Assembly (NCBI GenBank): GCA_963666275.2
Contig: CAXXOA010000002.1
Span: forward strand, 2,048,001-2,112,000
Source: Oceanispirochaeta sp.
Lineage (GTDB): Bacteria > Spirochaetota > Spirochaetia > DSM-2461
Length of the DNA stretch: 64,000 nt
Direction of reading: 5' to 3'
Both the position numbers and the translations under genes were made by a program. Shown in pieces: positions 15,805 to 37,732 of the stretch (positions are counted from its first letter, which is position 1; the number at the start of each line of letters is the position of its first letter). Under the pieces are notes generated by a model. That model was not told the origin of the DNA. It ran no database searches and saw nothing but the letters and a program-made list of their open reading frames with translations.

Positions 15805-16791
15805 CTAGGGGGCAATGAGTTCTCTGTATCTGCCGGCCCAGTAGGAGATAATGATATCCGTACCGGCCCGGTCCAGAGCGGCTATGGATTCTCTGACCAT
15901 GCCGCCCAGATCGCCCCAGCCTCTTTCGGCGGCGGCAATCAGCATGGAGTACTCTCCGCTCACATTGTAGGCCGCCAGGGGCAGGTTCGTCTCTTCCCTC
16001 AGACGGCTGATCACATCCAGATAAAACAGGGCCGGCTTCACCATCAGGATATCCGCTCCCTCCTCCTCATCGGTCAGGGACTCCCTGATGGCCTGGCGTT
16101 TATCTCTGTAGGACTGCTGATATCCCTGCCTGTCTCCTTTTCCCGGAGCAGACTGCTCGGCATCCCGAAAGGGGCCGTACATGGCCGAGGCAAACTTGGT
16201 GGAGTAACTCATAAGGATGGTCTGATCAAAGCCCCCGTCATCCAGTCCCTTCCGGATAGCCTGAACCTGGCCGTCCATCATGGCACTGGGAGCGACACAG
16301 TCGGCGCCGGCTTCGGCATGGGAGAGGGCTGTCCTCGTCAATTCAATCAGGGCCTGGTCGTTATCCACATCGCCCTCCGGGGTCAGCGGGCCGCAGTGGC
16401 CGTGTGAGGTATAGGCGCAGAGGCAGACATCGGTCATCACCACAAGCTGGGGGAACTCTTTTTTCAGGACCTTTACCGCTTCCTGAACAGAGCCGCCGGA
16501 GGCACAGGCCGCAGTTCCCCGGCCGTCTTTATTCTCCTCTTCTGTGAGTCCGAAAAGCAGTACACCCCCGATGCCTTCCCTGACCGCCTGTTCCACTTCG
16601 GCACAGAGGGTATCGGGACTGAGCCTGTACTGACCCGGCATGGCATCAATGGACTCTCTTTTATTCCGTCCTTCCGCCACAAAAAGGGGCCAGATGAATT
16701 TCTCCGGTCCCGGAAGGGGGGCATCGAAAAGCCTCCGGATCGAGGGGGTACGTCTCAGCCGTCTGAGTCTGAGCTGGGGATAACTGTTCAT
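15805..16791 (-). CDS. hemB: Porphobilinogen synthase (Zn-type)
   Basis: DVCLCAYTSHGHCG, APSAMMDG, YGPFRDA, MVKPA, AYNVSGEY. Confidence 0.97.
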   Translation of the reverse strand: MNSYPQLRLRRLRRTPSIRRLFDAPLPGPEKFIWPLFVAEGRNKRESIDAMPGQYRLSPDTLCAEVEQAVREGIGGVLLFGLTEEENKDGRGTAACASGGSVQEAVKVLKKEFPQLVVMTDVCLCAYTSHGHCGPLTPEGDVDNDQALIELTRTALSHAEAGADCVAPSAMMDGQVQAIRKGLDDGGFDQTILMSYSTKFASAMYGPFRDAEQSAPGKGDRQGYQQSYRDKRQAIRESLTDEEEGADILMVKPALFYLDVISRLREETNLPLAAYNVSGEYSMLIAAAERGWGDLGGMVRESIAALDRAGTDIIISYWAGRYRELIAP

Positions 16792-18902
16792 AGGATCTCC
16801 TTCAGTTTGTTATTCAGCCACCGGCCGGACAGGGTTTCTATAGAAGAGGGAAGTGAAGCCTCCCGGCTAACCAGGACCGGGGAGACTCCTTTCTCTTTCA
16901 GGGCTGTTTCTGTGGGAATCCCGATGGCTACCGGGGTTTTTCCATTCAGAGCCTCCAGCCCCCAGTTCTCCAGGAAGGCCGTAACGGCTGAGGAGCTGGC
17001 AAATATCACCGCATCACAGGGCGGGCAGGCATCGCTGGTTTTTAAAGTTGTATTTGTATATAAAATAATATCTCTTACAAGGGCTCCCCGGGATTCCAGG
17101 GCACGGGTTATTTCCGAGCCGGCCCGGTCCGAGCGGAAACGGATCACCCTCTCTCCTTCTCTGATGACCGGAACTCCCGACTGAATCAGGCTTCCGGCGC
17201 CGAAGGGGGAGGGGGCTGTGAAATCCGCGTAGAGACCGTACTCCTCCAGGGTCCGGGCCGAAGGGGTGCCGCAGACCATGATCTTCGGGAGTTTTCTGAT
17301 ATCCTGCCGCGTTTCTCTGAGCAGATCCATAAAATGGCGGATAGCGCCGGGAGATGTCAGGACGATCCAGTCGGTGTCATTCAAATCCAGACTCGGCAGA
17401 GACCGATCCAGGCGGATCAGGCTCTGTTTCAGCGGAATCCCTCCGAAATCTTCCACAGTCAGGGCCGCCTTTTCCATCAGCCGTTCACTGCAGGTCAGAA
17501 GGATTCTTTTTCCTCCCAGCGGGCCCGAGGAGGTGTCGAAGCCGTAACGGGCCACTTCCCCCGTAATCAGGAGTCCCGGGCTTTCATAACCCCGGGCATC
17601 AATTTTACCGGCAATATCACCCAGGGTACCCCGGATGATTGTCTGATCGGGGCTGCCGGCGTTGTAGACTACGGCAGCGGGTTCCGTCCCGGGCCGTCCC
17701 TCATCCAGCAGGTTTCGGACAACCGAACCGGAGGCCTTCAGAGACATAAAGAAGATCACCGGCAGCCGGGCCCGTTCCGAGGCTCCTGTATCGGCAATCT
17801 CTCCTCCCTCAATGCGGGAACTGATGGCTGTGTAGCCCCGGGAGACTCCCCGCCGTGTCAGAAGGAGCCCTGTCGCCGAAGTCGCCGCATTCAGGCTGCT
17901 CACTCCCGGGATCACAAGAAAGGGGATTTTCAGAGATTCCAGTTCTTCCGCCTCTTCGGCGAGACGGCCGAAAATACCGGGATCTCCCCCTTTGAGCCTG
18001 ACAACTTTCAGGCCTTTCCGGGCATATTCGCTAACCATTTCGGTGATTTTCTGCTGTTTAAAGCTATGCTGACCGCTTCTTTTTCCCGTGTAGACGGCTT
18101 CGCCCCGGACATGGGAGAGAAGTTCCTGGTCCAGCAGGGAGTCGTAGAGGCAGATGTCGCAGTTTTTCAGAGCCTCAATACCCTTGAGGGTGCATAAAGA
18201 AGCGCTTCCCGGGCCGGATCCCACAAAACGGACGGCCTTGATATAGAGGCTGCGGATGGCTGTGAATCTTTCATCCCCTTTCCGGAAACTCAGGGCCAGT
18301 ATCCCCTGGGCTTCCGGTGCGGGAAGCTTCTCCAGAGGGATGATTCGTGTGATCCTGTGAGACAGATCAAGCCGGTCCAGAGCCGCTTTGGCCATAATAA
18401 GCATATCGTAGCGGCCCTGATCCAGCTGGTCCAGGCGCATCTCTATGTTGCCTCTTATGGGCGCTGTGGGGACCTGGGGAAACTCCCGGGCACAGTAGGC
18501 TTCCCGGCGCTCGCTTGATACGCCGATCAGACTGTTTTTGTCCAGCTCCTCCGGGGTCATACCCTCCCGGCAGATCAGAACATCCTCCCTGGCGGCTTTC
18601 CAGGGGAGCCAGAACCAGTCGAGCTCCTCCCTCAGGGGGTACTCCAGGTCTTTCGCGCTGTGAACGGCGCAGTCCAGGTCTCCCCTTATGACCGCTTCAT
18701 CCAGATCTTTTGAGAAAAAATCTCCGGGGCTGACACGAAGATCCATTTTTCTGTCCCTGTCGCCCGGACTGGACATATTAATCTGTTCCCATTGAATCAA
18801 CGGGAAGTCAGCCGAGAGTTCTGCCAGAGCGGCCGCTGTCTGCCTTACGGCCAGATTGCTGTCACGGTTTCCGACTCTGAACACTTTCTGCGATTCGTTC
18901 AT
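16788..18902 (-). CDS. hemC-cobA-hemD: Triple fusion: hydroxymethylbilane synthase (domains 1-2 only) / uroporphyrinogen-III C-methyltransferase / uroporphyrinogen-III synthase
   Basis: aa1-220 HemC (R.S.LA..Q, AVHSAKD, SSERR, RGN...RL); aa~223-455 CobA (VGSGPG, RLKGGDPGIFGR, PGVSS); aa~461-704 HemD (PL.GKRILLT, LTSPGA, FASSSAV). Confidence 0.9.
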   Translation of the reverse strand: MNESQKVFRVGNRDSNLAVRQTAAALAELSADFPLIQWEQINMSSPGDRDRKMDLRVSPGDFFSKDLDEAVIRGDLDCAVHSAKDLEYPLREELDWFWLPWKAAREDVLICREGMTPEELDKNSLIGVSSERREAYCAREFPQVPTAPIRGNIEMRLDQLDQGRYDMLIMAKAALDRLDLSHRITRIIPLEKLPAPEAQGILALSFRKGDERFTAIRSLYIKAVRFVGSGPGSASLCTLKGIEALKNCDICLYDSLLDQELLSHVRGEAVYTGKRSGQHSFKQQKITEMVSEYARKGLKVVRLKGGDPGIFGRLAEEAEELESLKIPFLVIPGVSSLNAATSATGLLLTRRGVSRGYTAISSRIEGGEIADTGASERARLPVIFFMSLKASGSVVRNLLDEGRPGTEPAAVVYNAGSPDQTIIRGTLGDIAGKIDARGYESPGLLITGEVARYGFDTSSGPLGGKRILLTCSERLMEKAALTVEDFGGIPLKQSLIRLDRSLPSLDLNDTDWIVLTSPGAIRHFMDLLRETRQDIRKLPKIMVCGTPSARTLEEYGLYADFTAPSPFGAGSLIQSGVPVIREGERVIRFRSDRAGSEITRALESRGALVRDIILYTNTTLKTSDACPPCDAVIFASSSAVTAFLENWGLEALNGKTPVAIGIPTETALKEKGVSPVLVSREASLPSSIETLSGRWLNNKLKEIL

Positions 18903-20373
18903 AGCTGTCTATATTCTCCTGTATCGTTTCCCGGCAGAGTGTCATGATCCGTTCCATATCCGCCAGTTCTCTTCTGTACCAGTGCTTCAGATCATCCAGA
19001 TCGGTCACCGTGGTTTTTCTTCCTCCGGTTCCGGGAAGAGTTCCCAGGCCGGGAGAAATATTCCGGGGAAGGGACAGGTCTATCAGCAGGGTCTCCCTTT
19101 CCGGAGAGAACAGAGTGCTGTCTTTTTCATCCAGCAGATAGTCAGGACTGGAGGTGGCGGCGATGATAAAATCCGCTTCCATTATATACTCTTTGAATTC
19201 AGAGAGGGATATCATTTCTATGAGATCTTTTTCCGCCCCCTCCCATTCGGGAATTGTATTTCTGTAGGCACAGTAGAGGGGGATTCCCCGGGCCGCCAGA
19301 CGGCGGGCCATACCCCGGGCAATCACTCCGGTTCCCAGAATCATTCCCTTCCGGGGCTGTCCGGCTGTTTTCCGGATGTACTCCCAGGCAACGTCTTCGA
19401 TCTCAAACTCTTTCAGCAGGGGACCTGTCTCCCGCCGGATCAGCTTGGATATTCCCAGAGTTCTGGCGATCCAGTCATTCAGAATGGTCCCGGACCAGCC
19501 TTTTTCATCCGCCAGGGAGGCGGCTTCCTTGATCTGGGCCACAATATGATTCTCTCCGGGAGTCTGGGAATAGAGTCCTGCAAGGAGTTCGCTGCTGTGA
19601 AAAAAGGCCTGTTCTCCCCTGTGGAGATAGTACTCGCCGGTCTTCAGGGTCTCGAATCCCAGAATCCGGCTGATCAGGTCACTGACCGCTTCGTCATTGG
19701 ACACCACAGCCAGCACTTCAATGCGGTTGCATGTATTCAGGATCAGGAATTCATGGACACCCCAGATATGGGAGAGCATCATCCCCGTTTTTTCAAGCTT
19801 TTCTCCGGTCAGATGAAAGGGTTCCCTGCGGGAGATATCCAGCTGGAGATGGCTGGTCCCGATCACGAGGAGTTCCAGCGAGTCGATCATCTCTATGTGT
19901 TTCGCCAGGCTCTGTTTTATCAGTTTGGATCGTCTGCAGGAGGCTCCTCCGGTGGATACCGAGACGGAAAGTTCATCCTTCCGGAATATGGCGGGGGTGG
20001 TGAAATCCCCTTCGGGCCAGTTGCTGTCTATGGGGCAGCAGAGGATGCGCTTCTGCCGGCACTCCTGCAGGATCTCCCTGTTCAGAAGAGAATCGGAGGT
20101 GCCGCAGTACACAAGATCCTTGCCTTCCAGATCGCCGGATCTGAAGGGCCTCTGTTCCCAGTGAAAACAGCCCTTTCTGTAGAGATCCCCCACGCCTTCG
20201 CACATTTCGGGGCTTACAAGGGTCAGTTCGGCTCCCGACTGGATCAGGTTTTCAAGCTTCTTCAGGATACCCGGTCCGGCCCCGACTATAAGGCAGTGCT
20301 TCTCCTCCAGAAGCAGGCTGACGGGAAAGGTTTTTTTGATTAAGGGCCTGTATTTTCTGTTCATTCCTTTCAA
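18862..20373 (-). CDS. sirC-hemA: Fusion: precorrin-2 dehydrogenase (SirC/CysG-N-like) + glutamyl-tRNA reductase
   Basis: aa1-160 PV.L.L...CLIVGAG...DF..PA...VSTGG.S; aa~166-503 TCNRIE catalytic motif, GE..I..Q.K, DLSLPRNI, DLDDL. Confidence 0.88.
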   Translation of the reverse strand: MKGMNRKYRPLIKKTFPVSLLLEEKHCLIVGAGPGILKKLENLIQSGAELTLVSPEMCEGVGDLYRKGCFHWEQRPFRSGDLEGKDLVYCGTSDSLLNREILQECRQKRILCCPIDSNWPEGDFTTPAIFRKDELSVSVSTGGASCRRSKLIKQSLAKHIEMIDSLELLVIGTSHLQLDISRREPFHLTGEKLEKTGMMLSHIWGVHEFLILNTCNRIEVLAVVSNDEAVSDLISRILGFETLKTGEYYLHRGEQAFFHSSELLAGLYSQTPGENHIVAQIKEAASLADEKGWSGTILNDWIARTLGISKLIRRETGPLLKEFEIEDVAWEYIRKTAGQPRKGMILGTGVIARGMARRLAARGIPLYCAYRNTIPEWEGAEKDLIEMISLSEFKEYIMEADFIIAATSSPDYLLDEKDSTLFSPERETLLIDLSLPRNISPGLGTLPGTGGRKTTVTDLDDLKHWYRRELADMERIMTLCRETIQENIDSYERIAESVQSRKP

Positions 20374-21668: not shown

Positions 21669-21927
21669 GACAGGTTCCTTTATTCCGGTAGATTCTCTTC
21701 CCTCTAGATCTTAATCCGATCAGAGGGGAAAAGATTTTCTTTTCCTGTGATCTTCTTGTAAAAAATTGCGGTTTTATGTCTTTTTCCATCCATCAATCGT
21801 CCATTGAAGGAGCAAGAACATCTCTCGGGGAGGAAAAGGAACTTTCCCTCGTTCCGGGATTCCTTTAGAATGGCATTAATTGACTTCTTTTTCTATCAGT
21901 TGCAGGAGTATTGGGGGAGATAAGATC

Positions 21928-22719
21928 ATGGGCGGAAAAAAGGCATTGCTTGTCATCAGTTTCGGGACTTCTTATGAGGAAACACGGGAAAAGACCATAG
22001 GGGCCTGCGAAAAGGCTCTCTCCCTTTCGTTTCCCGATTATGACCTGAAACGGGCTTTTACCTCCCGATTCATTATCCGTAAACTGGCCCGCCGGGACGG
22101 CCTGGCTGTAGATACTCCTGTTATGGCTGTGGAAAGGCTCCTGCAGGAGCAGTACGACCAGGTGCTCATTCAGCCCCTTACAATCCTGAGCGGCCAGGAA
22201 TACTCCCGGAAAATTCTCCACCCCCTGTTTCCTTTCAGAAAATATTTCCGTTCATTCACTCTGGGGGAACCCCTGATTTATCACGACAGGGATTATGATG
22301 CCCTGCTGGATGCCCTGGAAGGTCAGGTTCCTTCTCTGGAAAGTGATGAAGCGCTGGTCTTTATGGGCCACGGTTCGGACAGTCCGGCCAATGCGGTCTA
22401 CAGCTGTCTGCAGCTGAAAGCCCGGGACAGGGATCTTCCCTGGGAGATCGGCTGCGTCGAAGGCTATCCGGGGCCGGAAATCCTTTTGAACAATCTGAAA
22501 AAACGGAATGTCCGCCGGGTTCATCTGATGCCCCTCATGCTTGTAGCGGGAGACCACGCCCGTAACGATATGGCCGGGGATGATCCCGAGAGCTGGCGGT
22601 CCCTCTTTTCTGCCGCCGGGTATGAGGTGGAGTGTCATCTCAGTGGGCTGGGGGAGAATCCTCAGATCCAGCAGATCTTCTGCCGGAAAGCCCGGGAGGC
22701 TTTCAATCCGCCTTCCTAA
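21928..22719 (+). CDS. cbiK: Sirohydrochlorin cobalto/ferrochelatase CbiK, cytoplasmic
   Basis: SFGTSY, AFTS..I, FMGHG, VEGYP, PLMLVAGDHARNDMAG; no signal peptide. Confidence 0.93.
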   Translation: MGGKKALLVISFGTSYEETREKTIGACEKALSLSFPDYDLKRAFTSRFIIRKLARRDGLAVDTPVMAVERLLQEQYDQVLIQPLTILSGQEYSRKILHPLFPFRKYFRSFTLGEPLIYHDRDYDALLDALEGQVPSLESDEALVFMGHGSDSPANAVYSCLQLKARDRDLPWEIGCVEGYPGPEILLNNLKKRNVRRVHLMPLMLVAGDHARNDMAGDDPESWRSLFSAAGYEVECHLSGLGENPQIQQIFCRKAREAFNPPS

Positions 22720-23693
22720 TCCCGGACTTCCTCCAGGAAATACCGGACCCTCTCTTTTTTATACTCTTTTGTGCTGAACAGGATCAGGGTTTCCTCGGCG
22801 GCGATCTCCTCTGCTATGGCGGCAATGGTTTCCCGGCACTCCTGTTCACTGTGCCCGTGGGTCATGGCCAGCAGAGGGTAGGGCCAGTCGGGATAGGTGG
22901 GCCTGTTGTAGCAGTGGGATACCTGGGAAAACTGAGCGGCCCCATGACCTGCCTGATCCAGACGTTCCGGGGGAAGGCGGAAGCAGGCCAGGCCGTTGGA
23001 GGCAAACCCGGTTTTTCTGTGACGGATCACAGCGGAAATCCGTTTTATAGCCCCCCTCTGCTTCAGCTGCCTGATCCCTTCCATCAGGGACTCTTCCGAT
23101 CTGTCCAGGGTGAGGGCAATTTCCCTCCAGGGATTCTCCACCAGCGGGAAGGGCTTCTGCAGTTCTCTGATCAGAGGGGTATCCAGAGCCCCTCTGACAG
23201 TCTGAACTTCCACCGGGGCAGAAGGAGCATCTTTCTTTGCTGCACTGTGACGGAAGTTGACTCCCAGCTTGTAGGTTTTCAGAGAGGGGAGGAGCCTGTA
23301 GGAGGTATAGTTCTCTTCTTTCAGAAGGTTCAGGATCTCCCTGTGGAAGTCATTTTCTTCGGGTATGGTCAGGGTAAACCAGATATTGAAGGCATGCTCC
23401 CTGTAATAGTTGTGGGACACCCCGGGATGGGCGCTGATCACGGCGGCGGTCCTGTCGGGTTCGGGGGAACTGAGAGCTACCAGGCTGCTCTTGTATCCCA
23501 GGGCCCGGGCGTTATAGATCGCCGAGATCTCCCGGATCAGATTCCGGTCCACCAGGCTCTGCAGGGTTCTCAGGTATTCATCCCTCTCCAGTCCCGCCCT
23601 TTCGGCGATGAGCCGGAAGGGAGCGTGTACAAGGGGAATATCCTGCTGAATAGTGTCCAGAACGACTCTCTCTTTTTCGCTTAAATCGGTCAT
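22716..23693 (-). CDS. ahbAB: Siroheme decarboxylase, fused AhbA-AhbB (Lrp/AsnC-like)
   Basis: Two repeats with VSHNYYR and VSHCYNRP..PDWPY, C-terminal STKEYKK; follows ahbC-ahbD. Confidence 0.88.
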   Translation of the reverse strand: MTDLSEKERVVLDTIQQDIPLVHAPFRLIAERAGLERDEYLRTLQSLVDRNLIREISAIYNARALGYKSSLVALSSPEPDRTAAVISAHPGVSHNYYREHAFNIWFTLTIPEENDFHREILNLLKEENYTSYRLLPSLKTYKLGVNFRHSAAKKDAPSAPVEVQTVRGALDTPLIRELQKPFPLVENPWREIALTLDRSEESLMEGIRQLKQRGAIKRISAVIRHRKTGFASNGLACFRLPPERLDQAGHGAAQFSQVSHCYNRPTYPDWPYPLLAMTHGHSEQECRETIAAIAEEIAAEETLILFSTKEYKKERVRYFLEEVRD

Positions 23694-27614: not shown

Positions 27615-28982
27615 ATGATTTCCATCATAGGAATGGGTCCGGGAGATCCGGCTTATATAACAGACAAGGCAAAGGAGCTTATAGAAAAGGCTCACAGGGT
27701 CTATGCTTTTCCCTTTCATCTGGAACAGATGGCCGTCCCCGAGGAGAAGGCCGAATCCATTGAGGGCTGTCTGAGCGATCTGCCCAAAAGGCTGGACGCC
27801 ATGGATGACACTCTGAATCTGGCGGTACTGGTTTCGGGGGATCCTCTTGTTTTCAGCCTGACCAGACGGATTACCTCCACTCTGGACCCCGGAAAATGGG
27901 AGATCATCCCGGCCGTGGGAAGCGCCCAGATCCTCAGTTCCCGACTGGGACTCCAGAGCCCTCTCCCCGAAGAGATCTCCGTTCACGGCCGCCCCATGGA
28001 CAATATCCTTCCCGGTCTGAACCGTCAGACTCCCATGATTGTCTATACGGACAGCCGGAATACACCTGCTGAAGTGGCCCGGTACATGGCGGAGAAAGAG
28101 GCCTTCCACTGGCGTATGGTCATAGGCAGTGAACTTACAAGAGAAGGGGAGAAGATCATCCATACCACCCCCTCGGAACTTCTGAGGAATAAAACCCTCT
28201 GTGATGGCTCCTATGACTGGGGGCTCAATCTTGTCTATCTCTCTCCTGTAGAAGAAAAAGTCAAGAAAAAAGGCTTTCTCTACGGAATCGGCATAGGCCC
28301 CGGAGACCCCGAACTGATCCCTGTCAAAGCCCTGCGGATCCTGAAGCAGTCCGATGTGATCCTCACCCCCAGCGGCGGAAAGGACAAAGTCTCCATTGCA
28401 AGGCAGATCCTGGAGAGCGCCGCCGGGACGGAGCTTCCCTTTCAGGAACTTGTCTATCCCATGGTGAAGGACAGGGATGTACTGGACAGCCACTGGGAGG
28501 AAGCCGCCCGGGTGTGTGCGGAACTTCTGAAGGAGGGGAAGCAGGTCAGCTTTATCACCCTGGGAGATCCCTCGCTGTACTCCACATTCTCCTACCTCTG
28601 CAACGCCCTGAAGGAGATCCTGCCCGATGCCCGGTGGGAGGTCATTCCCGGCATCAGCAGCATACAGCTGGCAGCGGCCCGGCTGGGACTCCCCCTGGCT
28701 CTGGGGCATGACAGATGCTCCATCCTGCCCACGCCGGATGATCTGGAAGAGCTCAAACCCCTTCTGAAGAGTCATGAGTCCATTATCCTGATGAAGGTGA
28801 GTCACCGGCTGAAGCCCCTGAAGGATTTCCTGGCCCGGGAGGGCCTGAGTGATCAGGCGGCTTTTATCTACAAAGCGGGATTCAAAGAAGAGTACAAGGC
28901 CTACAGCTTCAACGAGCTGGACGACTCCCGGGACGGCTATCTCTCCATCGTGATGATCCGGACCCGGCGTTCCTGGCTGTAG
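27615..28982 (+). CDS. cbiE-cbiL: Fusion of two corrin methyltransferases: CbiE-like (aa1-~215) + CbiL/CobI-like (aa~220-455)
   Basis: Two GxGPGD motifs; VLVSGDP and SVHGR (CbiE-like); FITLGDPSLYSTF, PGISS, ILMK (CbiL-like). Confidence 0.8.
   Translation: MISIIGMGPGDPAYITDKAKELIEKAHRVYAFPFHLEQMAVPEEKAESIEGCLSDLPKRLDAMDDTLNLAVLVSGDPLVFSLTRRITSTLDPGKWEIIPAVGSAQILSSRLGLQSPLPEEISVHGRPMDNILPGLNRQTPMIVYTDSRNTPAEVARYMAEKEAFHWRMVIGSELTREGEKIIHTTPSELLRNKTLCDGSYDWGLNLVYLSPVEEKVKKKGFLYGIGIGPGDPELIPVKALRILKQSDVILTPSGGKDKVSIARQILESAAGTELPFQELVYPMVKDRDVLDSHWEEAARVCAELLKEGKQVSFITLGDPSLYSTFSYLCNALKEILPDARWEVIPGISSIQLAAARLGLPLALGHDRCSILPTPDDLEELKPLLKSHESIILMKVSHRLKPLKDFLAREGLSDQAAFIYKAGFKEEYKAYSFNELDDSRDGYLSIVMIRTRRSWL
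28880..28980 (+). repeat. 101-bp direct repeat copy 1 (3' end of cbiE-cbiL)
   Basis: ATTCAAAGAAGAGTAC...TTCCTGGCTGT, 100/101 identical to 29981-30081. Confidence 0.97.
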
Positions 28983-29086
28983 AAACTGTCTATTTAAAGA
29001 ATTGCCACTTTGAATTACAAAATAGGATAGAAATTGAATCAACCTTCCGTATTTGGCTGTTGTGAGTTATATACGGGAGGTTTATC

Positions 29087-29956
29087 ATGAAAAATATGGC
29101 AAGCTGGATTAGAGCCACATCTGATATAATGGTAAGGGTCCTTCTGGGACAGGAGGATAATCTCCCTCTTTTAAAGGACTTCATTAATTCTGTTCTGACT
29201 GATAGAGGTTTACCACCCGTCTCATATCTTGAACTCAAAAATCCGGTAAATCTGAGAACCATCTTCAATGAAAAAGAAACGGTATTGGATGTAAAAGCTA
29301 AAGACCAATCCGGTAAAATTTATGATATTGAGATACAGAGTATAGGAAACCGTGAGTTTATTCAGCGCAGTTTATACTACTGGGCAAAACTCTATTCCTC
29401 ACAACTGAAAGAGGGACATCAGTATAAAAAACTGAATCCTGTGATTTGCATTAATCTGCTGGATTTTGTGCTTTTTCCGGAAAAACCGGATCCTGCCTTT
29501 CATAGTTGTCATATGATTAGCGATATGGATGATTCGGAAACTATTTTGACTGACCATTTACAGATTCACTATATTGAGTTACCAAAAATTCATCCGAATC
29601 CTTTGGAGGTTCCCTCTGATCGGCTCAGGAAATGGGCATGGTATTTTAGAGAAGAAGGTATTTGGGAGGAAGAGGATATGAAAATCATACTGAAAGAAGA
29701 TCCAATTTTTCAAAAAGCTCATGATACATTTAACAATTTTACGGCAAATGATGAATATATGGAGCTCTACGAGGCCCGGATGAAATATGAACGTGACAGA
29801 GCTCAAGCTCTCTCCGATAGCTGGGAAGATGGACTTGAAAAGGGCTGTGAGAAAAGGAATCGGGAAATTGCTGAAAAACTCAAAAGCAAAGACTATTCCC
29901 TGGATCAGATCGTTGATATCACAGGGTTAACTAAAGAAGAAATTGAATCTCTATAA
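29087..29956 (+). CDS. Rpn family recombination-promoting nuclease / PD-(D/E)XK putative transposase
   Basis: LDVKAK...YDIEIQ...RSLYYWAKLYS, VICINLLDF, YIELPK, C-terminal IA..L...I..ITGLT.EEI; visibly AT-richer than its flanks; GGGAGG RBS. Confidence 0.92.
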   Translation: MKNMASWIRATSDIMVRVLLGQEDNLPLLKDFINSVLTDRGLPPVSYLELKNPVNLRTIFNEKETVLDVKAKDQSGKIYDIEIQSIGNREFIQRSLYYWAKLYSSQLKEGHQYKKLNPVICINLLDFVLFPEKPDPAFHSCHMISDMDDSETILTDHLQIHYIELPKIHPNPLEVPSDRLRKWAWYFREEGIWEEEDMKIILKEDPIFQKAHDTFNNFTANDEYMELYEARMKYERDRAQALSDSWEDGLEKGCEKRNREIAEKLKSKDYSLDQIVDITGLTKEEIESL

Positions 29957-29980
29957 GGAATAACTGGTTGAATTTCAATC

Positions 29981-30081
29981 ATTCAAAGAAGAGTACAAGG
30001 CCTACAGCTTCAACGAGCTGGACGACTCCCGGGACGGCTATCTCTCGATCGTGATGATCCGGACCCGGCGTTCCTGGCTGT
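29981..30081 (+). repeat. 101-bp direct repeat copy 2 (orphan cbiL 3' end, ending in TGA)
   Basis: Single mismatch (28946 C vs 30047 G) is synonymous (TCC/TCG Ser). Confidence 0.97.
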
Positions 30082-30084
30082 GAG

Positions 30085-30158
30085 TAAAATATTCACGGAC
30101 GTGAAAATTTTGCCTGAAACCAGGAATGTCAACTTAAAATATTCATGTACATGAAAAT
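30085..30158. repeat. Two 24-bp palindromic boxes 50 bp apart (possible protein-binding sites)
   Basis: TAAAATATTCACGGACGTGAAAAT (30085-30108) and TAAAATATTCATGTACATGAAAAT (30135-30158), 21/24 identical. Confidence 0.6.
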
Positions 30159-30195
30159 ATAAAAAAGGCAGGATCAGTTCCTGCCTTTTTTATAT
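30157..30195. terminator. Bidirectional Rho-independent terminator
   Basis: ATATAAAAAAGGCAGGA-tcagt-TCCTGCCTTTTTTATAT perfect inverted repeat between convergent units. Confidence 0.9.
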
Positions 30196-30200
30196 CAGAT

Positions 30201-30947
30201 CTAAACCTCATACCCCCGGGGGGTTACCATTCTGTCTCCCATCCTTCGGGTGGCGCTGTTGCCTATGATCACGGTGGATCCCATATGGATCCTGTCGTAA
30301 AGGCCTTCAAGCTCATCCAGAGTGGTGATCATCACTTCGCAGGTCTCCCTGTAGGCTTCGTTCACAACCCCCACAGGGGTAGAACCTTTGCGGTGTTTCA
30401 GGTAGATCTGCCGGGCCTGTTCGATGTGATCCACCCGTTTTTTACTTTTGGGGTTGTACAGCACCGTCACAAAATCCCCTTCCGCGGCCAGTTCCAGACG
30501 ACGGAGGATCGTCTCTTTCGGGGTGAGCAGATCGCTCAGGGAGATCACGGCGAAATCGTGCATCAGAGGGGCTCCCAGCAGGGAGGCGCAGGAGTTGGCC
30601 GCGGTGATCCCCGGTACAACCTTCACCTCCACCTGGTCTTCCAGTTCCATGGCGTACTGCAGTTCCAGGGCCAGACCGGCCATACCGTAGACCCCGGCGT
30701 CTCCGCTGGAGATCAGGCAGACCCGCTTTCCCGTTGCCGCCAGGTTCAGGGATTCCCGGACCCGTTCGGTCTCCTTTGTCATGCCTGTTCCGAAGGTCTC
30801 TTTTCCCTGGATCAGGTCCTTTACAAGGCTCAGATAGCGGGTGTAACCCACAATGACCTGGGACTCTTCTATCTCTCTTCTGGCCGCCTGGCTCATCATT
30901 TCGGGTGAACCGGGACCGATCCCCAGTACAATTAATGTTCCTTTCAT
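30201..30947 (-). CDS. cbiH: Cobalt-precorrin-3 C17-methyltransferase
   Basis: GIGPG, SSGDAGVYGMA, GAPLMHDFAVISLSDLLTP, LYNPKSK, TPRGY. Confidence 0.95.
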   Translation of the reverse strand: MKGTLIVLGIGPGSPEMMSQAARREIEESQVIVGYTRYLSLVKDLIQGKETFGTGMTKETERVRESLNLAATGKRVCLISSGDAGVYGMAGLALELQYAMELEDQVEVKVVPGITAANSCASLLGAPLMHDFAVISLSDLLTPKETILRRLELAAEGDFVTVLYNPKSKKRVDHIEQARQIYLKHRKGSTPVGVVNEAYRETCEVMITTLDELEGLYDRIHMGSTVIIGNSATRRMGDRMVTPRGYEV

Positions 30948-31690
30948 AGTGAATCTTCCTCTGCCAGTGCGACTGTGACCGGGCCCGTTACGGTTTTGGG
31001 AGAGATCAGACGGGTGTTCCGTCCTCCCAGAAGGGCGCAGGGTTCGGCGACGGCTCTGGCTCCGATGTTTTTTTTCGCTGTTTCGCTTGTTTCATAGGGC
31101 CCGTCAAACTGGTTGATCCGGGTGACCGAAAAAAACCGGACCCCCAGGCCTCTATTGTAGAAGCACTCAAGAAGGCCCTGTTCGTCCTGTTTCAGGTCCA
31201 CGCTGGCTCCCAGACGGACCTGATCCCAGGTTAACCCCTTCCGGGTCAGAGCTTCTGTAACGGCTCTGTCTATCTCTCCGGCAGTGGTGCCTCTCCGGCA
31301 TCCCACTCCGGCAATGATCTTTCTGTTGGTATCGCTGGCGGTGGTCACCACAGGGCAGGCATTGAGAATGGTCCCCACCCTCAGGGCCAGGGCATTGGCT
31401 CCCCCTTCATGGCCCGAAAGGAGGCTGATCGCATACCGGGCGGCGTCGTCCACCACCACAACCGCCGGGTCCCTGTATTTGGACTCCACATAGGGGGCGA
31501 TCATCCTCACGACGATTCCCGTGGCCATCAGAAAAATCAGCCCCTCATACTCCCTGAAAAGGCGCTCCGTATTCTTTTTGAGCCATCCCTTTTCAAGCTC
31601 TATCAGGGGCGTGCAGTCCGGGAGATCCCGGGCGATCCTCTGTGCCAGAGGGGAGGCCGACGGGGTGACCGCAATGACAGCGGTTTTCAC
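30944..31690 (-). CDS. cbiG: Cobalt-precorrin-5A hydrolase (short form)
   Basis: MATGIVVR.IAP...KY.DPAVVV, LLSGHEGGAN, VTTASD, GVGCRRG, VAEPCA. Confidence 0.92.
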   Translation of the reverse strand: MKTAVIAVTPSASPLAQRIARDLPDCTPLIELEKGWLKKNTERLFREYEGLIFLMATGIVVRMIAPYVESKYRDPAVVVVDDAARYAISLLSGHEGGANALALRVGTILNACPVVTTASDTNRKIIAGVGCRRGTTAGEIDRAVTEALTRKGLTWDQVRLGASVDLKQDEQGLLECFYNRGLGVRFFSVTRINQFDGPYETSETAKKNIGARAVAEPCALLGGRNTRLISPKTVTGPVTVALAEEDSL

Positions 31691-32475
31691 GGTTTGCTGT
31701 ATCCCTTTTCCCGGGCTGTTCTGTATTCATGGGTAAATCCCGGGTCGTAGAGCTTGGACATTTCGTAGAAAAAAGGTTCCTCCTGGGCCCGGAAAACCTC
31801 TCCCACCATAATCAGAGCCTGTTTCCGGATCCCTGCGGCCAGAACCTTTTCCGCAATATCCGACAGGGTTCCCGTGACAATCTTCTGGTCGGGCCAGCTG
31901 GCCCGGTAGACCACCCGGCAGGGGGTTTCGGGGCTGTAACTGTCTGCCAGTTCCTCCGCCAGGGTTTTAATCTGGGAGATCGAGAGGAACAGGATCAGCG
32001 TGGATCCGATGGCGGCCAGATTTTTCACAGTCTCTTTTTCGGGAACAGGAGTCCTTCCGGCACTGCGGCTCAGAATCACAGTCTGGGTTACCCCCGGCAG
32101 GGTCAGTTCCTGACCCAGAGCTGCGGCGGAAGCCTGAAAGGAGCTGACTCCGGGGATCACCTCCAGGGCAATTCCCGTTTTCCGGCAGAAATCGATCTGT
32201 TCCTGAATGGCGCCGTACACGGAAGGGTCCCCTGTATGGACCCGGGCTATGATTCCTTCGGCAGAGGCATTCTCCCGGTAGACCTCTGTGACCTGTCTGA
32301 AATCCATCCCCGCCGAATCGTAGATCCTGGCATCGGAGCGGCAGTATTCCAGAAGGGCCGGATTCACAAGGGAACCCGCCCATATAACGATATCTGCTTT
32401 CTGCAGGATTTTATGGCCTTTCAGGGTGATCAGCTCCGGGTCTCCCGGACCGGCCCCGATAAAATATATTTTCAT
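31687..32475 (-). CDS. cbiF: Cobalt-precorrin-4 C11-methyltransferase
   Basis: GAGPGDPELIT, AGSLVN, HTGDPSVYGAI.EQ, SKLYDP.FTH. Confidence 0.95.
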   Translation of the reverse strand: MKIYFIGAGPGDPELITLKGHKILQKADIVIWAGSLVNPALLEYCRSDARIYDSAGMDFRQVTEVYRENASAEGIIARVHTGDPSVYGAIQEQIDFCRKTGIALEVIPGVSSFQASAAALGQELTLPGVTQTVILSRSAGRTPVPEKETVKNLAAIGSTLILFLSISQIKTLAEELADSYSPETPCRVVYRASWPDQKIVTGTLSDIAEKVLAAGIRKQALIMVGEVFRAQEEPFFYEMSKLYDPGFTHEYRTAREKGYSKP

Positions 32476-33207
32476 CTAATGTTTCTCCATTCTTGTGGTA
32501 ATCAGGGCAGTAGAAAGGTATCCTTCAGTCTCAACAGGCAGATCTTTCAGGCTGGGGTAGAGCTCTTCATCTTCCAGTCCCGCTCTTTTAACCAGAGCCG
32601 TCTGATCCGAGAGGCCCAGGGATTCTATTTTACGGCGGAACTCATCCAGCCTGTTGGAAACCTTATAGATCACCACAGTATCAAAGAGTTTAACAAGAGC
32701 ATCCAGATCGTCCAGATCCTCAGGCAGGGGAATCAGAGCCAGCTTCTCCCTGCCCAAGAGCAGGGGACGGTTCAGGGCCGCTCCGGCGGCATTCATGGTG
32801 GAAATGCCGGGAACCGTTTCTGTTCTGAGGGAAGCACCGGTTTCTGCGAGGGCTTTCTGCAGATAGCTCCAGGTGCTGTAGATCCCAGGATCACCCAGGG
32901 TCAGAAAAACTCCCCGGGAGGAGTCAGCCATTTCGCTGATCACTGTCCGGGCCGCGGCCTCCCACTTCTCCTGAAGGGTCTGTCTGTTTTTCGTCATGGG
33001 AAATTCCATTTCCACCACTTTCGCAGGCCTTACGCCGGTTCCCTCCATGATGCTCCGGGCCAGGGAATCCCCCTTCACACGGGCTTTGGGAGTGAAAACC
33101 ACATCCGCTTCTTCTATCAGTTTCAATCCTTTGAGAGTCATCAGTCCGGGATCTCCCGGTCCTATGCCTATCCCCGTCAGCAGGGGGTTCTCTTGCTGGT
33201 TACTCAC
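32476..33207 (-). CDS. cbiL: Cobalt-factor II C20-methyltransferase
   Basis: GIGPGDP, FPM, FLTLGDPGIYST, YK, YLS; likely GTG start at 33207 overlapping the cbiD stop. Confidence 0.9.
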   Translation of the reverse strand: MSNQQENPLLTGIGIGPGDPGLMTLKGLKLIEEADVVFTPKARVKGDSLARSIMEGTGVRPAKVVEMEFPMTKNRQTLQEKWEAAARTVISEMADSSRGVFLTLGDPGIYSTWSYLQKALAETGASLRTETVPGISTMNAAGAALNRPLLLGREKLALIPLPEDLDDLDALVKLFDTVVIYKVSNRLDEFRRKIESLGLSDQTALVKRAGLEDEELYPSLKDLPVETEGYLSTALITTRMEKH

Positions 33208-34396
33208 AATTATCCTTATCCTTTTTTTTAAAATGCAGGCAGAGTTGCTCGCTGCCCTCATAGTCACCTGACCATCCCAGAAGCTTACCTTTCAGATCCA
33301 GAGCGGCTGTTTCAATCAGGTCGACAGAGGCACCGCACTCTTTTTCAAGATAGGAGCGGCATCGCTGTTTCGCCCTTTCACAAACCAGAGTAAAGGTCCT
33401 GTCCAGTTTCCACTGTTTCAGCAGAGCCGCTCCTTTTTCCGCCAGAGGTTCGGCCAGGAGTGTTTCTATTTCCACAGGAGTGGCTCCCGCCGCCCCGGCG
33501 CAGGCTGCCAGAGTCTCCATCCGGGCGTCTCCGTAGTCGCAATGGGTCTGAAACAGTCCCGCCGCTACTTTGGTGATCTTTCCTATATGAAGGGGCAGGA
33601 AGATTTTCCGGATTCCCCGTTTCTGCGCCTGCTTCAGGGCAAAGCCTATGAGATCACCCACGGCTACCCAGTCTTCCTCATCAAATCCTTCGGCTGTGAG
33701 AAAGCGTTCTCCCACATAGCCGCTGGCAATGGTAAGGCGATCAGCTCTGCGCGCTGCAGAACGGATTACCATCCCCAGGGTGGCCTGGAAGGCTTTTTCC
33801 GACCGGGGTTCCACGACGCCGCTGGTTCCGATCAGGGATATTCCCCCCCGGACTCCCACCCGGCTGTTCCAGGTTCCGGCGGCAATCTTTTCTCCCTCCG
33901 GGGCGGAGAAGGTTATGGTCACGGCCCTGCCTGAAAGGCCGTGGGCCGAAAGGATCCGATCCGTCTCCTGCAGGATCATCTTCCGGGGGACCGGATTGAT
34001 CGCCGGATTTCCCGGTTTCACAGGCAGTCCTTCTCCTGTCACCCTGCCGATGCCCTCTCCCCCGATGAGGGTTATTTCAGAGCCTTCCGCCCAGGCGGCT
34101 GCGGCGCGGATCTCCATGCCGTTTGTATCATCCCTGTCATCTCCCGAATCCTTGAGAACCGAAGCGCCGGCGCTCCCGTCTCTCTGGATTCCGCTGCTGT
34201 GGAGGGGGATTGTTATCTCTTTTTCACTGAAGGGCTTATTGCTTTTTGGCAGGGTTATTTCAACATCAGATTTTACCTCTCCTGTGATCAGGAGTTCCAG
34301 AGCTGCCGCTGCGGCGGCCTGGGCGGTTGTTCCTGTGGTGTATCCCCGTCGGAGAGTTCCGGCTGTTCCCAGGACCTCTCTGTAATCCGCTGCCAT
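33200..34396 (-). CDS. cbiD: Cobalt-precorrin-5B C1-methyltransferase
   Basis: LRRGYTTGT.A.AA, KDSGDD.D.T, GGEGIGRVT, AINPVPR, GGISLIGTSGVVEP. Confidence 0.95.
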   Translation of the reverse strand: MAADYREVLGTAGTLRRGYTTGTTAQAAAAAALELLITGEVKSDVEITLPKSNKPFSEKEITIPLHSSGIQRDGSAGASVLKDSGDDRDDTNGMEIRAAAAWAEGSEITLIGGEGIGRVTGEGLPVKPGNPAINPVPRKMILQETDRILSAHGLSGRAVTITFSAPEGEKIAAGTWNSRVGVRGGISLIGTSGVVEPRSEKAFQATLGMVIRSAARRADRLTIASGYVGERFLTAEGFDEEDWVAVGDLIGFALKQAQKRGIRKIFLPLHIGKITKVAAGLFQTHCDYGDARMETLAACAGAAGATPVEIETLLAEPLAEKGAALLKQWKLDRTFTLVCERAKQRCRSYLEKECGASVDLIETAALDLKGKLLGWSGDYEGSEQLCLHFKKKDKDNCE

Positions 34397-34402
34397 AGAC
34401 CT

Positions 34403-35068
34403 CTAGTTTTCCTCTTCCTTCACAGCCAGTGCCAGAAGGCCGTTCACTATGGCGGCCGCGATGGTGCTGCCCCCTCTTTCACTGAGGTTTGTAATATGGG
34501 GATAGGGCTTTTCCGCCAGCTCCACTTTGGATTCCAGGGCCCCCACAAAACCGACGGGTACCCCCACAATAAGGGCCGGTTTCACCTCGCCCGCATCGAC
34601 CATTTTCATTAGCTGAAACAGGGCGGTCGGAGCATTTCCAATGGCAATGACCGCGCCGTTCAGGAGGCTTCCCGCTTTTTCCATAGCCAGAGCGGAGCGG
34701 GTTGTGTTTTTTCCTTTTACAGCTTCCACAACCTCAGGATCATTCAGAAAACAGTAGTCCTTTCCTCCCAGATCCTTCAGAAGATTTTTCCGGACACCCG
34801 TGCGGACCATCTCCACATCTGTTATGACGGGAGCGCCTTTTTTCAGTGCCTCCACGCCCTGAACCACCGCTTCCTCTGTCAGGTTGAAGGTTTTGGCAAA
34901 CTCCACATCTCCTGTGGTATGGGCTATCCTTATCACTATTTCCATGACTTCCGGCGGAGCGGTGTAGTCTCCCAGCCTGTCCTGAATAATGGCAAAACTT
35001 TTATTGGTAATCTGCTGCCCGCTCATGGGGGTGTTCTGGTTCGTACTCATTATCTCTTTCCTTATCAA
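34403..35068 (-). CDS. cbiC: Cobalt-precorrin-8 methylmutase
   Basis: SF.II, R..HTTGD, TRS, IGNAPTAL, PVGFVGA.ESK, RGGS. Confidence 0.95.
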   Translation of the reverse strand: MIRKEIMSTNQNTPMSGQQITNKSFAIIQDRLGDYTAPPEVMEIVIRIAHTTGDVEFAKTFNLTEEAVVQGVEALKKGAPVITDVEMVRTGVRKNLLKDLGGKDYCFLNDPEVVEAVKGKNTTRSALAMEKAGSLLNGAVIAIGNAPTALFQLMKMVDAGEVKPALIVGVPVGFVGALESKVELAEKPYPHITNLSERGGSTIAAAIVNGLLALAVKEEEN

Positions 35069-36465
35069 GTATTTGTGTAGTCCCTGCAGGCCTGAATAAA
35101 CCGGTCGGCAATTTCAGGATGGGATGCCAGATGCATATGCATATAGGAGGCCCAGGTATTCTCGGTATAGAACCCGTCCTGCATTCCCTTTACCGCGGCA
35201 TCTCCCTCTTTTTCCAGATCCATCACATAGGGCAGGGCAGGGCTTTTTTTTTCGATCGAAGACCAGTGAAAGATATGGCCTGTTATCTCTTCTCCCGCCG
35301 GGCCCATCCAGCTTTTCCGCTTTGTGGTTCCCTTGTAGTATCCCAGGGCGCGGAGCCCCTTTTTCATAACTGTTGAAGCCGGGAAGACCCCTGTCATTTT
35401 AAAAGGCTTTCCGTCAAAGCCTGTAATGCTTTCGGTCAGATACATAAGACCGCCGCACTCCCCCCACAGAGGCATACCCTGCAACGAGGCCTCTCTGACC
35501 GCCCGGCGCATGGAACTGTTCTGTTCCAGCTCCTCTCCATGGAGTTCCGGGTAACCGCCCCCCAGGTAGATCCCCTGAGTTCCCTCGGGGAGTTCCCTGT
35601 CTTTCAGGGGGCTGAACGGAACCAGTTCGGCACCCCGGCTGGACAGAAAATCCAGATTATCCTGATAGTAGAAATGAAAAGCCCTGTCCCAGGCATAGGC
35701 GATGCGGACTGTTTTTTCCGGTTTTTCCTCCCCTGTGAAGAGAGAGGGTGTATACGCCGGCAGGGGAGGAGCCGACAAGGCTGTCTCCCGGAGCTTATCA
35801 ATATCCACTGAATCCCGGATGATGGGAGCTGTCCTGTCAAAAAAGTCCAGGATCTCATCTTTTTCCCAGGCCGGTATCAGTCCCAGATGCCGTTCGGGCA
35901 TAACCAGGGATTCATTCTTTGGTATGGCTCCCAGGACAGGCAGGCCTGTGGCGTTTTCGACAGCCTGACGCACCATCCTCTCATGACGGGGGCTGGCAAC
36001 GCGGTTCAGAATAAATCCTTTCAGGGAAAGATTTTTATCGAACTCCCTGTACCCCAGGGCTATGGCTCCGGCCGAGCGGGCCATGGCCTTCACATCCAGC
36101 AGGAGAACCGCGGGGGAGTCGAGGATTTTAGCAAGATGGGCCGTACTGCCCCTCTCATCCAGACCGTCCGAACCGTCATAGAGACCCATCACACCCTCTA
36201 TTAAGGAAAGATCCGCCTGGCTAGAGTGCCTGTCGAAGAGCTCCCGGACCTTCTGGCTGCTGATCAGCCTGGTATCCAGGTTTCTGCTGATCCTTCCGCA
36301 GGCCAGTGAGTGATAGGAGGGGTCTATGTAGTCGGGGCCGCATTTGAAGGGCTGGACCCGCTCGCCCCGGTCAGTCAGAATCCTGCCCAGCAGGGTGGTG
36401 AACAGGGTTTTTCCCGTTCCCGAAGTAGCGGCACCTATGGTTAATCTGGGTCTGTTTTCTGACAT
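35065..36465 (-). CDS. cbiA: Cobyrinate a,c-diamide synthase
   Basis: SGTGKT, FKCGPDYID, EGVMGLYDG, ERHLGL, GGGYPE, ECGG.MYL; likely ATG at 36465. Confidence 0.96.
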   Translation of the reverse strand: MSENRPRLTIGAATSGTGKTLFTTLLGRILTDRGERVQPFKCGPDYIDPSYHSLACGRISRNLDTRLISSQKVRELFDRHSSQADLSLIEGVMGLYDGSDGLDERGSTAHLAKILDSPAVLLLDVKAMARSAGAIALGYREFDKNLSLKGFILNRVASPRHERMVRQAVENATGLPVLGAIPKNESLVMPERHLGLIPAWEKDEILDFFDRTAPIIRDSVDIDKLRETALSAPPLPAYTPSLFTGEEKPEKTVRIAYAWDRAFHFYYQDNLDFLSSRGAELVPFSPLKDRELPEGTQGIYLGGGYPELHGEELEQNSSMRRAVREASLQGMPLWGECGGLMYLTESITGFDGKPFKMTGVFPASTVMKKGLRALGYYKGTTKRKSWMGPAGEEITGHIFHWSSIEKKSPALPYVMDLEKEGDAAVKGMQDGFYTENTWASYMHMHLASHPEIADRFIQACRDYTNT

Positions 36466-36631
36466 GAAAGATGGATCTCCTAGGGCTTTTACTAAACGAT
36501 GGAATAGATTTTTTGTCAATTTAAGTTCTCTTTTTCAGTGGAGAAATCCAAAAAATCCATAAAATACTCCAAAAATATTCAAATTATTCCTATAGACAGG
36601 TTCACACTATCAGGGCTAATCTTATGAATAT

Positions 36632-36862: not shown

Positions 36863-37732
36863 ATGAAAAAAATGAGAATCACAGGAGCCGCAGCTCTCCT
36901 GGCAGTCATTGCCGTCCTTTTCGGCGGATGCCGGAGTACCGCAGGAGACGCAGACCGGGATCGGCCCACCATTGTGGTAGCCGCTTTCGGCAGCAGCTAC
37001 GAGACAGGTCAGAAAAATCTGGAGGATTTTGATAAAGCCCTCCGGGCGGCCTATCCGGAGAATGAGATCACCTGGGGATTTACCGCCGGCTTTATTGTGA
37101 AAAAGCTCAGAAAGAACGGAGTGGAGACACTCTTTGAATCCCATGTTCCTGTCAGGCATATCAGCGAGACCCTGGCGGATCTGGCGGCAGAAGGCAGAAG
37201 AGATATAGTTGTTGTGAACTTCATGCTCATGGTGGGCGCCGAATACAGAGAAGTTATGGATCAGCCCACCAAAGGGCTCAATGTGAAGTATGTTCATCCG
37301 CTGCTCTACTATCCTGAAAATATCCAGAATGCCGTAAGCGCACTGGAAAGCGAGTTCGGAGGGCCCGGAGAAGCCACGATTGTATGCGCCCATGGAAATG
37401 AAAAGCATCCCGAATACAACGCTGAACTGATACAGATCGATAATTACCTGAGAGAGAATTACAGCAATGCCTATGTGGCTGTTATGGAGGGGACTCCCGC
37501 TTTTGAACCGGTCAGAGAGAGCATTGCCGCCTCAGATGTGGAGAGTGTGAAATACATTGCCTTTATGCTGACCTACGGCGACCATATGTCCAACGATGTG
37601 ATGGGGGAGGACGCGGATTCCATGAAGTCCAGAATCGGTCTGCCCGGAGAAAGCTCCGACGGCATGGCCAGCCTTCCGGGGATCCAGAACCTTTTTATAC
37701 AGAAAATTGATACGGCTCTGAAGCAGTTCTGA
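36863..37732 (+). CDS. cbiK: Exported (lipoprotein) CbiK-family chelatase/cobalt-binding protein
   Basis: Signal peptide ending LFGG-C; AFGSSY, WGFTA, CAHGN, MEG.P, YGDHM.ND. Confidence 0.85.
   Translation: MKKMRITGAAALLAVIAVLFGGCRSTAGDADRDRPTIVVAAFGSSYETGQKNLEDFDKALRAAYPENEITWGFTAGFIVKKLRKNGVETLFESHVPVRHISETLADLAAEGRRDIVVVNFMLMVGAEYREVMDQPTKGLNVKYVHPLLYYPENIQNAVSALESEFGGPGEATIVCAHGNEKHPEYNAELIQIDNYLRENYSNAYVAVMEGTPAFEPVRESIAASDVESVKYIAFMLTYGDHMSNDVMGEDADSMKSRIGLPGESSDGMASLPGIQNLFIQKIDTALKQF

Follow-up and report, generated by a model that had tools for sequence, protein, structure and literature searches.

The 64,000-nucleotide stretch of an Oceanispirochaeta sp. genome that we analyzed (contig CAXXOA010000002.1, positions 2,048,001 to 2,112,000; hereafter the window) carries on its minus strand a gene, P0001, in which the porphobilinogen deaminase HemC, the methyltransferase CobA and the synthase HemD are joined in a single chain. 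The original prediction for this locus had described a triple fusion whose deaminase lacks domain 3 and the cysteine to which the dipyrromethane cofactor is normally attached. The Pfam matches agree: PF01379 at residues 8-213 (E 7e-47), PF00590 at residues 226-430 and PF02602 at residues 483-687, with no match to PF03900, the domain 3 family, at E<=0.1, and no GGC anywhere in the protein. It is the two-domain HemC that is unusual here; the fusion is secondary. The features of the gene are as follows.

16788..18902, minus strand: HemC(domains 1-2)-CobA-HemD fusion gene P0001, 704 residues; AlphaFold2 model with predicted local distance difference test score (pLDDT) 91.6 and predicted template modeling score (pTM) 0.89
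18243..18902, minus strand: two-domain porphobilinogen deaminase module, residues 1-220; PF01379 match at residues 8-213; ends with helix 211-218
18720..18722, minus strand: Asp61, in the lid loop and characteristic of the two-domain clade; Asp in 216/228 and Asn in 12/228 sequences
18648..18650, minus strand: catalytic Asp85 (human Asp99), within HSAKD; Asp in 228/228 two-domain sequences
18192..18194, minus strand: Cys237, within the glycine loop of CobA; substitutable, and no anchor for the clade as a whole
17544..18236, minus strand: CobA (uroporphyrinogen-III C-methyltransferase) module, residues 223-453; TIGR01469 and NF004790
16818..17510, minus strand: HemD (uroporphyrinogen-III synthase) module, approximately residues 465-695; PF02602 (E 4e-31) and overlay on 4ES6

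The HemC similarity ends near residue 220, where it had been placed from the sequence: alignments with 17 of 17 solved deaminase sequences stop at query residues 212-216, and TIGR00212, which P0001 passes with 164.2 bits (cut-off 164), covers just positions 2-211 of 293. In the AlphaFold2 model, for which an alignment of 117 rows served as input, the short helix 211-218 is followed immediately by the first CobA strand (224-228), and the HemC module superimposes on 1PDA with Z 23.3 and a root-mean-square deviation (rmsd) of 1.7 over 209 aligned residues. The CobA module scores above cut-off for both TIGR01469 (197.7 bits, cut-off 185) and NF004790 (199.2, cut-off 198) and has residues D254, L256, R302, K304, D307, R313 and E317, all of which are kept in 79/79 members of the type A sub-clade, while the HemD module matches 4ES6 with Z 16.5 and rmsd 2.8 over 230 residues. 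P0001 is not a product of chance or misassembly, because the best 120 of 1687 homologues show the identical domain architecture, with the same three Pfam domains, no PF03900 and lengths of 676-793 residues; a strain-specific deletion was ruled out on the same grounds.

No second hemC and no free domain 3 were found in the genome (97% complete, 3 contigs), which has a single PF01379 match and zero PF03900 matches, so that the claim of a sole hemC stands. Neither observation that the original prediction had named as telling against it, a canonical hemC elsewhere or close relatives with domain 3, was made. Because PF03900 can miss a divergent domain 3, a custom domain-3 hidden Markov model (HMM) was built from 30 sequences; over the six-frame translation of the genome its best E was 0.31, and no domain 3 was found. 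Seven three-domain HemC queries matched the fusion locus only, and only to the end of domain 2. When built without the proteins of family f33, which has the Leptospira-type architecture, the custom HMM recovered f33 at E 8e-5 to 0.04 and 0/241 fusion proteins. Family f33 (L081-L085) is itself a false-negative trap for domain surveys, with PF03900 in 0/53 genomes despite a GGGC motif. It was considered as functional proof for the loss of domain 3 and ruled out, because it retains a domain 3 too divergent for Pfam to recognise; since f33 keeps domain 3, Leptospira-type function is uninformative for the two-domain form.

The short HemC extends well beyond this locus, to Spirochaetota, Kiritimatiellota/Lentisphaerae, Bacteroidota, Omnitrophota and nearly all sampled Chlamydiota. 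Using FastTree, 228 two-domain sequences form a single clade relative to 77 three-domain sequences with support 0.936 (0.912 for the first 200 two-domain sequences), and in an interim IQ-TREE tree of 72 sequences, obtained without support values, the 40 two-domain rows group together. Sampling in the trees was biased toward the two-domain clade, and P0352, P0371, L056, L087 and L099 (short or wrong open reading frame) as well as L212 (NSAKD, removed by the motif filter) were excluded. The single clade suggests, at the level of sequence, that two-domain HemC arose by one old loss of domain 3; median identity between sub-clades is 37%. A second sub-family, type B, was reached via the locus of a relative and has Paludibacter, Tannerella, Elusimicrobia and Dysgonomonas among its names; its best 120 matches are likewise without PF03900. 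The 80 loci from named genomes divide into 41 with the two-domain form and 39 with the three-domain form (one of the latter frameshifted), and PF03900 was found in 0/47 genomes with the short form (those of 36 of the 41 two-domain loci plus 11 relatives) as compared to 5/5 controls. The frameshifted case, L163 (5172-6112), is a split three-domain hemC with domain 3 in the next frame, reflecting either an assembly error or a pseudogene.

Many members of the clade are stand-alone proteins of 215-245 residues or are without CobA. The stand-alone genes, from Omnitrophota, Planctomycetia, Prevotella and Chlamydiae records, reach a stop codon at most about 30 residues past the position of Q199, and several of them belong to hemA-hemC-cobA(D)-hemB-hemL operons without gaps. 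The best 150 profile matches (50%-identity representatives) gave 0 matches to the custom HMM and comprise 100 triple fusions, the rest being HemC-HemD, HemC-CobA, HemA-HemC, stand-alone forms and fragments. Several individual arrangements are recorded here. In a Prevotella record (L173, 5770-7269) a stand-alone two-domain hemC is followed by hemD in an operon without cobA. Five SirC-HemA-HemC fusions (P0306, P0354, P0355, P0360 and P0373; HemA unrecognised in two) carry the two-domain HemC at the C-terminus; judging from these gene models the module fuses at either end. In L086 (3011-4870, genome G134) and P0278 HemA is fused to a two-domain HemC and the protein carries a conserved tail of ∼60 residues; a longer, related tail in P0259 resembles an arsenate-reductase/phosphatase-like domain.

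It might be that a separate protein acts in trans, as the tether or in place of the missing domain, since canonical enzymes require domain 3 for stability and anchoring, according to the available text of PMC7959689 and PMC7907807. Such a partner strikes us as highly improbable: no free domain 3 is present in the genome, stand-alone genes occur in operons that leave no gap for one, and over 93 loci (many with flanks of just 1.5 kb) no unassigned neighbor gene is common to all groups.

In order to establish which parts of the active site are retained we compared P0001 and its clade with the human enzyme, hydroxymethylbilane synthase (HMBS). The motifs HSAKD, R.S, SSERR and DRL are kept as originally predicted, although RGN...R has three intervening residues rather than two, and the canonical K-G-L-F loop has indeed been swapped for SPGDFF. 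Equivalents of human R26, S28, Q34, S96, K98, D99, S147, R149, R150, R167, R173, A189, R195 and G218 are all present, and 13 of these 14 ligand or ring residues are kept in at least 225/228 clade members, with R149 found in 148/228. Contacts to the substrate analogue and to ring site 1, as listed in Table 2 in the available text of PMC7959689, correspond to R13, S15, Q21, S82, K84, D85, R133, R150, G151, R156, A171, R177 and G200 of P0001; the side chains in question, G151 having been counted separately, are conserved in 225-228/228 sequences, human Asn169 excepted. Residues Q21 and D85, which are involved in deamination, are invariant across the clade. In contrast, residues tied to domain 3 or to the cofactor have, to judge by the alignment, drifted or been released. 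Human R116, salt-bridged to E250 of domain 3 (10.1101/2023.02.06.527353, available text), is Arg in 74/77 three-domain sequences as opposed to 31/81 type A and 0/28 chlamydial sequences, and the lid Lys (human K74) is lost. One new near-invariant residue appears in the alignment near the cleft of the clade, Asp61, at a position that is Gly in 67/77 three-domain sequences.

The original prediction had proposed that the fused methyltransferase might supply the anchor through Cys237. The codon at 18192-18194 is TGC as stated, and Cys237 is conserved in 113/120 nearest homologues (other sequences mostly have L, I, M or V there), lies 38 residues past Q199 and belongs to a module of which a few model residues overlay the space of domain 3 (last pair, model 248 and 1PDA 280). 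The proposal nevertheless fails the co-variation test suggested along with it: the whole clade has lost domain 3, yet Cys237 is restricted to some members of a single sub-clade. A diverse sample has it in 40/79 type A (the other residues include I 11, A 8 and L 8) and at most 1/72 type B sequences, which rules it out as a clade-wide anchor, and within the same family four genomes have Ile instead. C248 and C251 are as conserved in near homologues (113/120), so that Cys237 points to a trait of a cysteine-rich sub-family. Type A HemC-HemD fusions that have no CobA exist (P0274, P0303 and P0328), CobA-less members occurring in both sub-clades, and the rest of the single clade would require a second mechanism. 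A local role for Cys237 within its sub-clade is unlikely, and that it anchors the cofactor there is hardly to be expected. The N-terminus of the type A CobA (window 18156-18236) is cysteine-rich (C237, C248, C251), though catalytic residues further downstream are invariant, and its glycine loop, GSGPGS in P0001 as compared to canonical GxGPGD, is relaxed within type A as judged from the aligned sequences, with the P in 19/79 and the D in 17/79.

The fullest cysteine column over the 228 HemC domains reaches 78/228, 9/228 domains have zero Cys, and the stand-alone proteins P0300 and P0348 are entirely without cysteine; the model of P0300 is a complete two-domain fold (pLDDT 97; Z 24.2 and rmsd 1.1 over 200 residues aligned to 1AH5). 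At position 173, two residues away from A171, which binds the ring, Cys occurs in 118/121 near and 74/119 diverse type B homologues, but this cysteine was ruled out as a clade-wide anchor, the residue being Ala in P0001, in 74/81 type A and in 26/28 chlamydial sequences. A primer bound covalently to some other residue of domains 1-2, be it a Lys, Ser or Asp that is invariant or a lineage-specific cysteine such as that at position 173 of type B, is in our estimation rather improbable. K84, S82, S130 and D85 are invariant in the clade, yet they are likewise invariant in three-domain enzymes, and the only new near-invariant residue, Asp61, is Asn in 12/228. Two further loci bear on the cysteine. 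The HemC-HemD fusion L091 (1820-3688, genome G094), outside the two-domain clade, seemingly keeps domain 3 with LGIGL in place of LEGGC and no cofactor cysteine, a possible second, independent anchor loss as read from its sequence. L089 (2351-3298) is a degenerate HemC paralogue of 316 residues, without catalytic motif or cofactor cysteine, in a genome (G285) that additionally carries a type B fusion.

Whether the short module is likely to be active may be gauged from the company it keeps. Among 120 genomes of Chlamydiota, the 102 that have HemC are exactly those that have the downstream HemE, and the other 18 have neither; HemB is absent from 17 of those 18, and PF03900 is found in 1/120. Nearly all HemC open frames in the 102 genomes measure either 203-285 or ∼420-476 residues, the latter being HemD fusions where checked. 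In complete small genomes the HemB, HemC and HemE genes lie hundreds of kb apart (770, 164 and 1165 kb in G387). A dead gene should not follow its pathway so closely in reduced genomes. The same all-or-none pattern was reported for Simkaniaceae on the basis of annotation (PMC11070183, available text). Adjacency of HemD was rejected as a special feature, as it holds for 23/29 chlamydial loci but for 25/30 three-domain loci too. A RadA/Sms-like gene, recognised by eye, adjoins hemC in 28 chlamydial loci (L187-L215).

From co-occurrence, residues and gene context, the two-domain HemC is probably active. We must weigh this against a module that is no longer a polymerase, serving as a porphobilinogen (PBG) binder, a regulator or a relic, with bilane coming from an unknown enzyme or the environment. 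By themselves domains 1-2 adopt a periplasmic-binding-protein fold (matches at Z<=12.6), they are without a feature that every solved structure is said to share (PMC7959689, available text), and a published assay of any member was not found in the literature. Invariant Q21 and D85, the co-retention of HemB, HemC and HemE in reduced genomes and operons that show no alternative enzyme all speak against it, and we regard a non-polymerase as very unlikely.

The genes around the fusion are listed below.

15805..16791, minus strand: hemB, porphobilinogen synthase, which makes the substrate; PF00490; its start overlaps the fusion stop
18862..20373, minus strand: sirC-hemA fusion (precorrin-2 dehydrogenase-like plus glutamyl-tRNA reductase); PF13241, PF14824, PF05201, PF01488
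20370..21668, minus strand: hemL, glutamate-1-semialdehyde aminomutase; PF00202 and operon position
21880..22719, plus strand: cbiK chelatase; PF06180
22716..26003, minus strand: ahbC, ahbD and fused ahbA-B; TIGR04546, TIGR04545, NF040708 and NF040707, all above cut-off
27615..36519, strand not given: anaerobic cobalamin ring genes (cbiE-L fusion, cbiH, G, F, L, D, C, cobB/cbiA), from an NCBIfam scan

The operon is intact, as had been noted, with the minus-strand order hemL, sirC-hemA, fusion, hemB and overlapping ends. Because it adjoins cbiK, ahbA-D and the cobalamin genes, PBG supply and precorrin-2 demand are both encoded here; by family assignment ahbA-D would constitute a siroheme-dependent heme route that uses precorrin-2 downstream, and the anaerobic cobalamin ring genes a putative second user. 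The cluster contains additional fusions (sirC-hemA, 18862-20373; ahbA-ahbB, 22716-23693; cbiE-cbiL, 27615-28982), a second cbiL (32476-33267), a second cbiK-like gene (36863-37732) and, within the cobalamin genes, an Rpn-family nuclease/putative transposase gene (TIGR01784, 29087-29956).

Taken together, fold, residues and gene context make a single-chain route from PBG to precorrin-2 the best explanation for P0001. Its HemC module would belong to an old and widespread lineage of two-domain hydroxymethylbilane synthases without covalent cysteine tether, and we consider it reasonably likely, going by the sequences, that the enzyme is an active deaminase lacking such an anchor. Within this reading a wholly cofactor-free pyrrole polymerase, a binding-protein-fold enzyme of ∼215 residues that joins exactly four PBG into a bilane, is quite possible and is put forward tentatively; an active enzyme with a primer kept non-covalently is unlikely, if still worth entertaining. 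The primer would be either the first PBG or a retained dipyrrole, and the growing chain would be held by salt bridges alone and slide back by way of sites 2 and 3. Six rings occupy the substrate site and sites 1-5 in the canonical ES4 state, and domain 3 gives the tether, one site-3 contact and sliding room, with the cofactor rings loosely bound (PMC7959689, available text). Without the c1-c2 cofactor four ring positions suffice instead of six, so that the space of domain 3 and the sliding cysteine loop become dispensable; a free tetrapyrrole would need the substrate site and sites 1-3 only, supplied mostly by domains 1-2. Asp61, the new lid residue, is a candidate participant in loss of the ring-A amine or in the stop at four. 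The tetrapyrrole would be released as aminomethyl- or hydroxymethylbilane, the cofactor-free route giving aminomethylbilane first, with HemD then cyclising and CobA methylating the product. The canonical deaminase can turn aminomethylbilane into hydroxymethylbilane.

Several observations weigh against an active, untethered enzyme. A covalent link via an invariant non-cysteine residue is compatible with the sequences. The human N169 position is frequently Thr in the clade, T145 is Val in P0001, and site 2 is kept in part, R149 being Arg in just 43/119 type B sequences. Because the HSAKD motif served to fetch the 41 loci, its conservation is to some extent circular. The 0/47 count for PF03900 is weaker than the custom-HMM test, since PF03900 misses divergent domain 3, and that test covered this genome and the fetched proteins only. 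Related genomes are not independent in the co-occurrence counts. The canonical apo-enzyme is unstable and nearly all human HMBS nonsense variants are damaging (PMC7907807 and 10.1101/2023.02.06.527353, available text), and no published activity, complementation or structure of any two-domain member was found in the literature.

If the cofactor-free reading is true, the dipyrromethane cofactor is not universal in tetrapyrrole synthesis, with exceptions in several phyla including nearly all sampled Chlamydiota. A lineage without it would reveal whether the cofactor and domain 3 serve in priming, in the control of length or in stability, and would offer a minimal enzyme for studying chain sliding and release, as well as a one-gene cassette from PBG to precorrin-2 for heme and B12 engineering. 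Should the chlamydial enzymes differ from human HMBS in mechanism this could form a basis for selective inhibitors. In the available text of two reviews cysteine-bound dipyrromethane is the defining feature of the deaminase step (PMC13564367, PMC7242693), and only the canonical enzyme is described in the available portions of these and of PMC7907807, PMC3738108, PMC9714363, PMC3945110 and PMC7827610; context was provided by parts of 10.1101/2021.02.09.429727, PMC11426443 and PMC4514472. No description of a HemC without domain 3 was found in the literature, supplements, most subscription journals and older biochemistry not being covered. On the strength of sequence comparison, a core pyrrole-chaining reaction probably proceeds here by a route that has yet to be described.

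Relative to the canonical three-domain enzymes (1PDA, 1AH5 and human 7CCX) P0001 shares the fold of domains 1-2, the catalytic Asp, the substrate-site and ring-site-1 residues and the place in a hem operon, but it is without domain 3 and the cofactor cysteine, has lost the lid Lys, gained Asp61 and released the R116 hinge Arg, and is fused to CobA-HemD. The closest named entry is the NCBIfam equivalog NF002202 (PRK01066, 'hydroxymethylbilane synthase'), which at 241 positions is short like the two-domain enzyme and which, from its length, is probably the chlamydial family. P0361, which belongs to the clade and stands alone, reaches 244.8 against the NF002202 cut-off of 251, whereas P0001, a triple fusion from another sub-clade of the same wider clade by tree, scores 128.3. 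The short HemC is thus already catalogued as a synthase, the name being annotation only. Bifunctional CobA-HemD proteins (K13542) have the same module order, as do the full HemC-CobA-HemD fusions L099, L133, L143, L149, L155 and L171 (∼800-850 residues or more), which unlike P0001 retain domain 3 with its GC motif and, for the five of these six that the tree included, lie outside the two-domain clade. A HemC-HemD fusion of Leptospira was reportedly described by Guegan in 2003. In this type a spirochaete HemC is joined to HemD, as in P0001, and the family with that architecture, f33, has a divergent domain 3 with GGGC in 5/5 fetched proteins.

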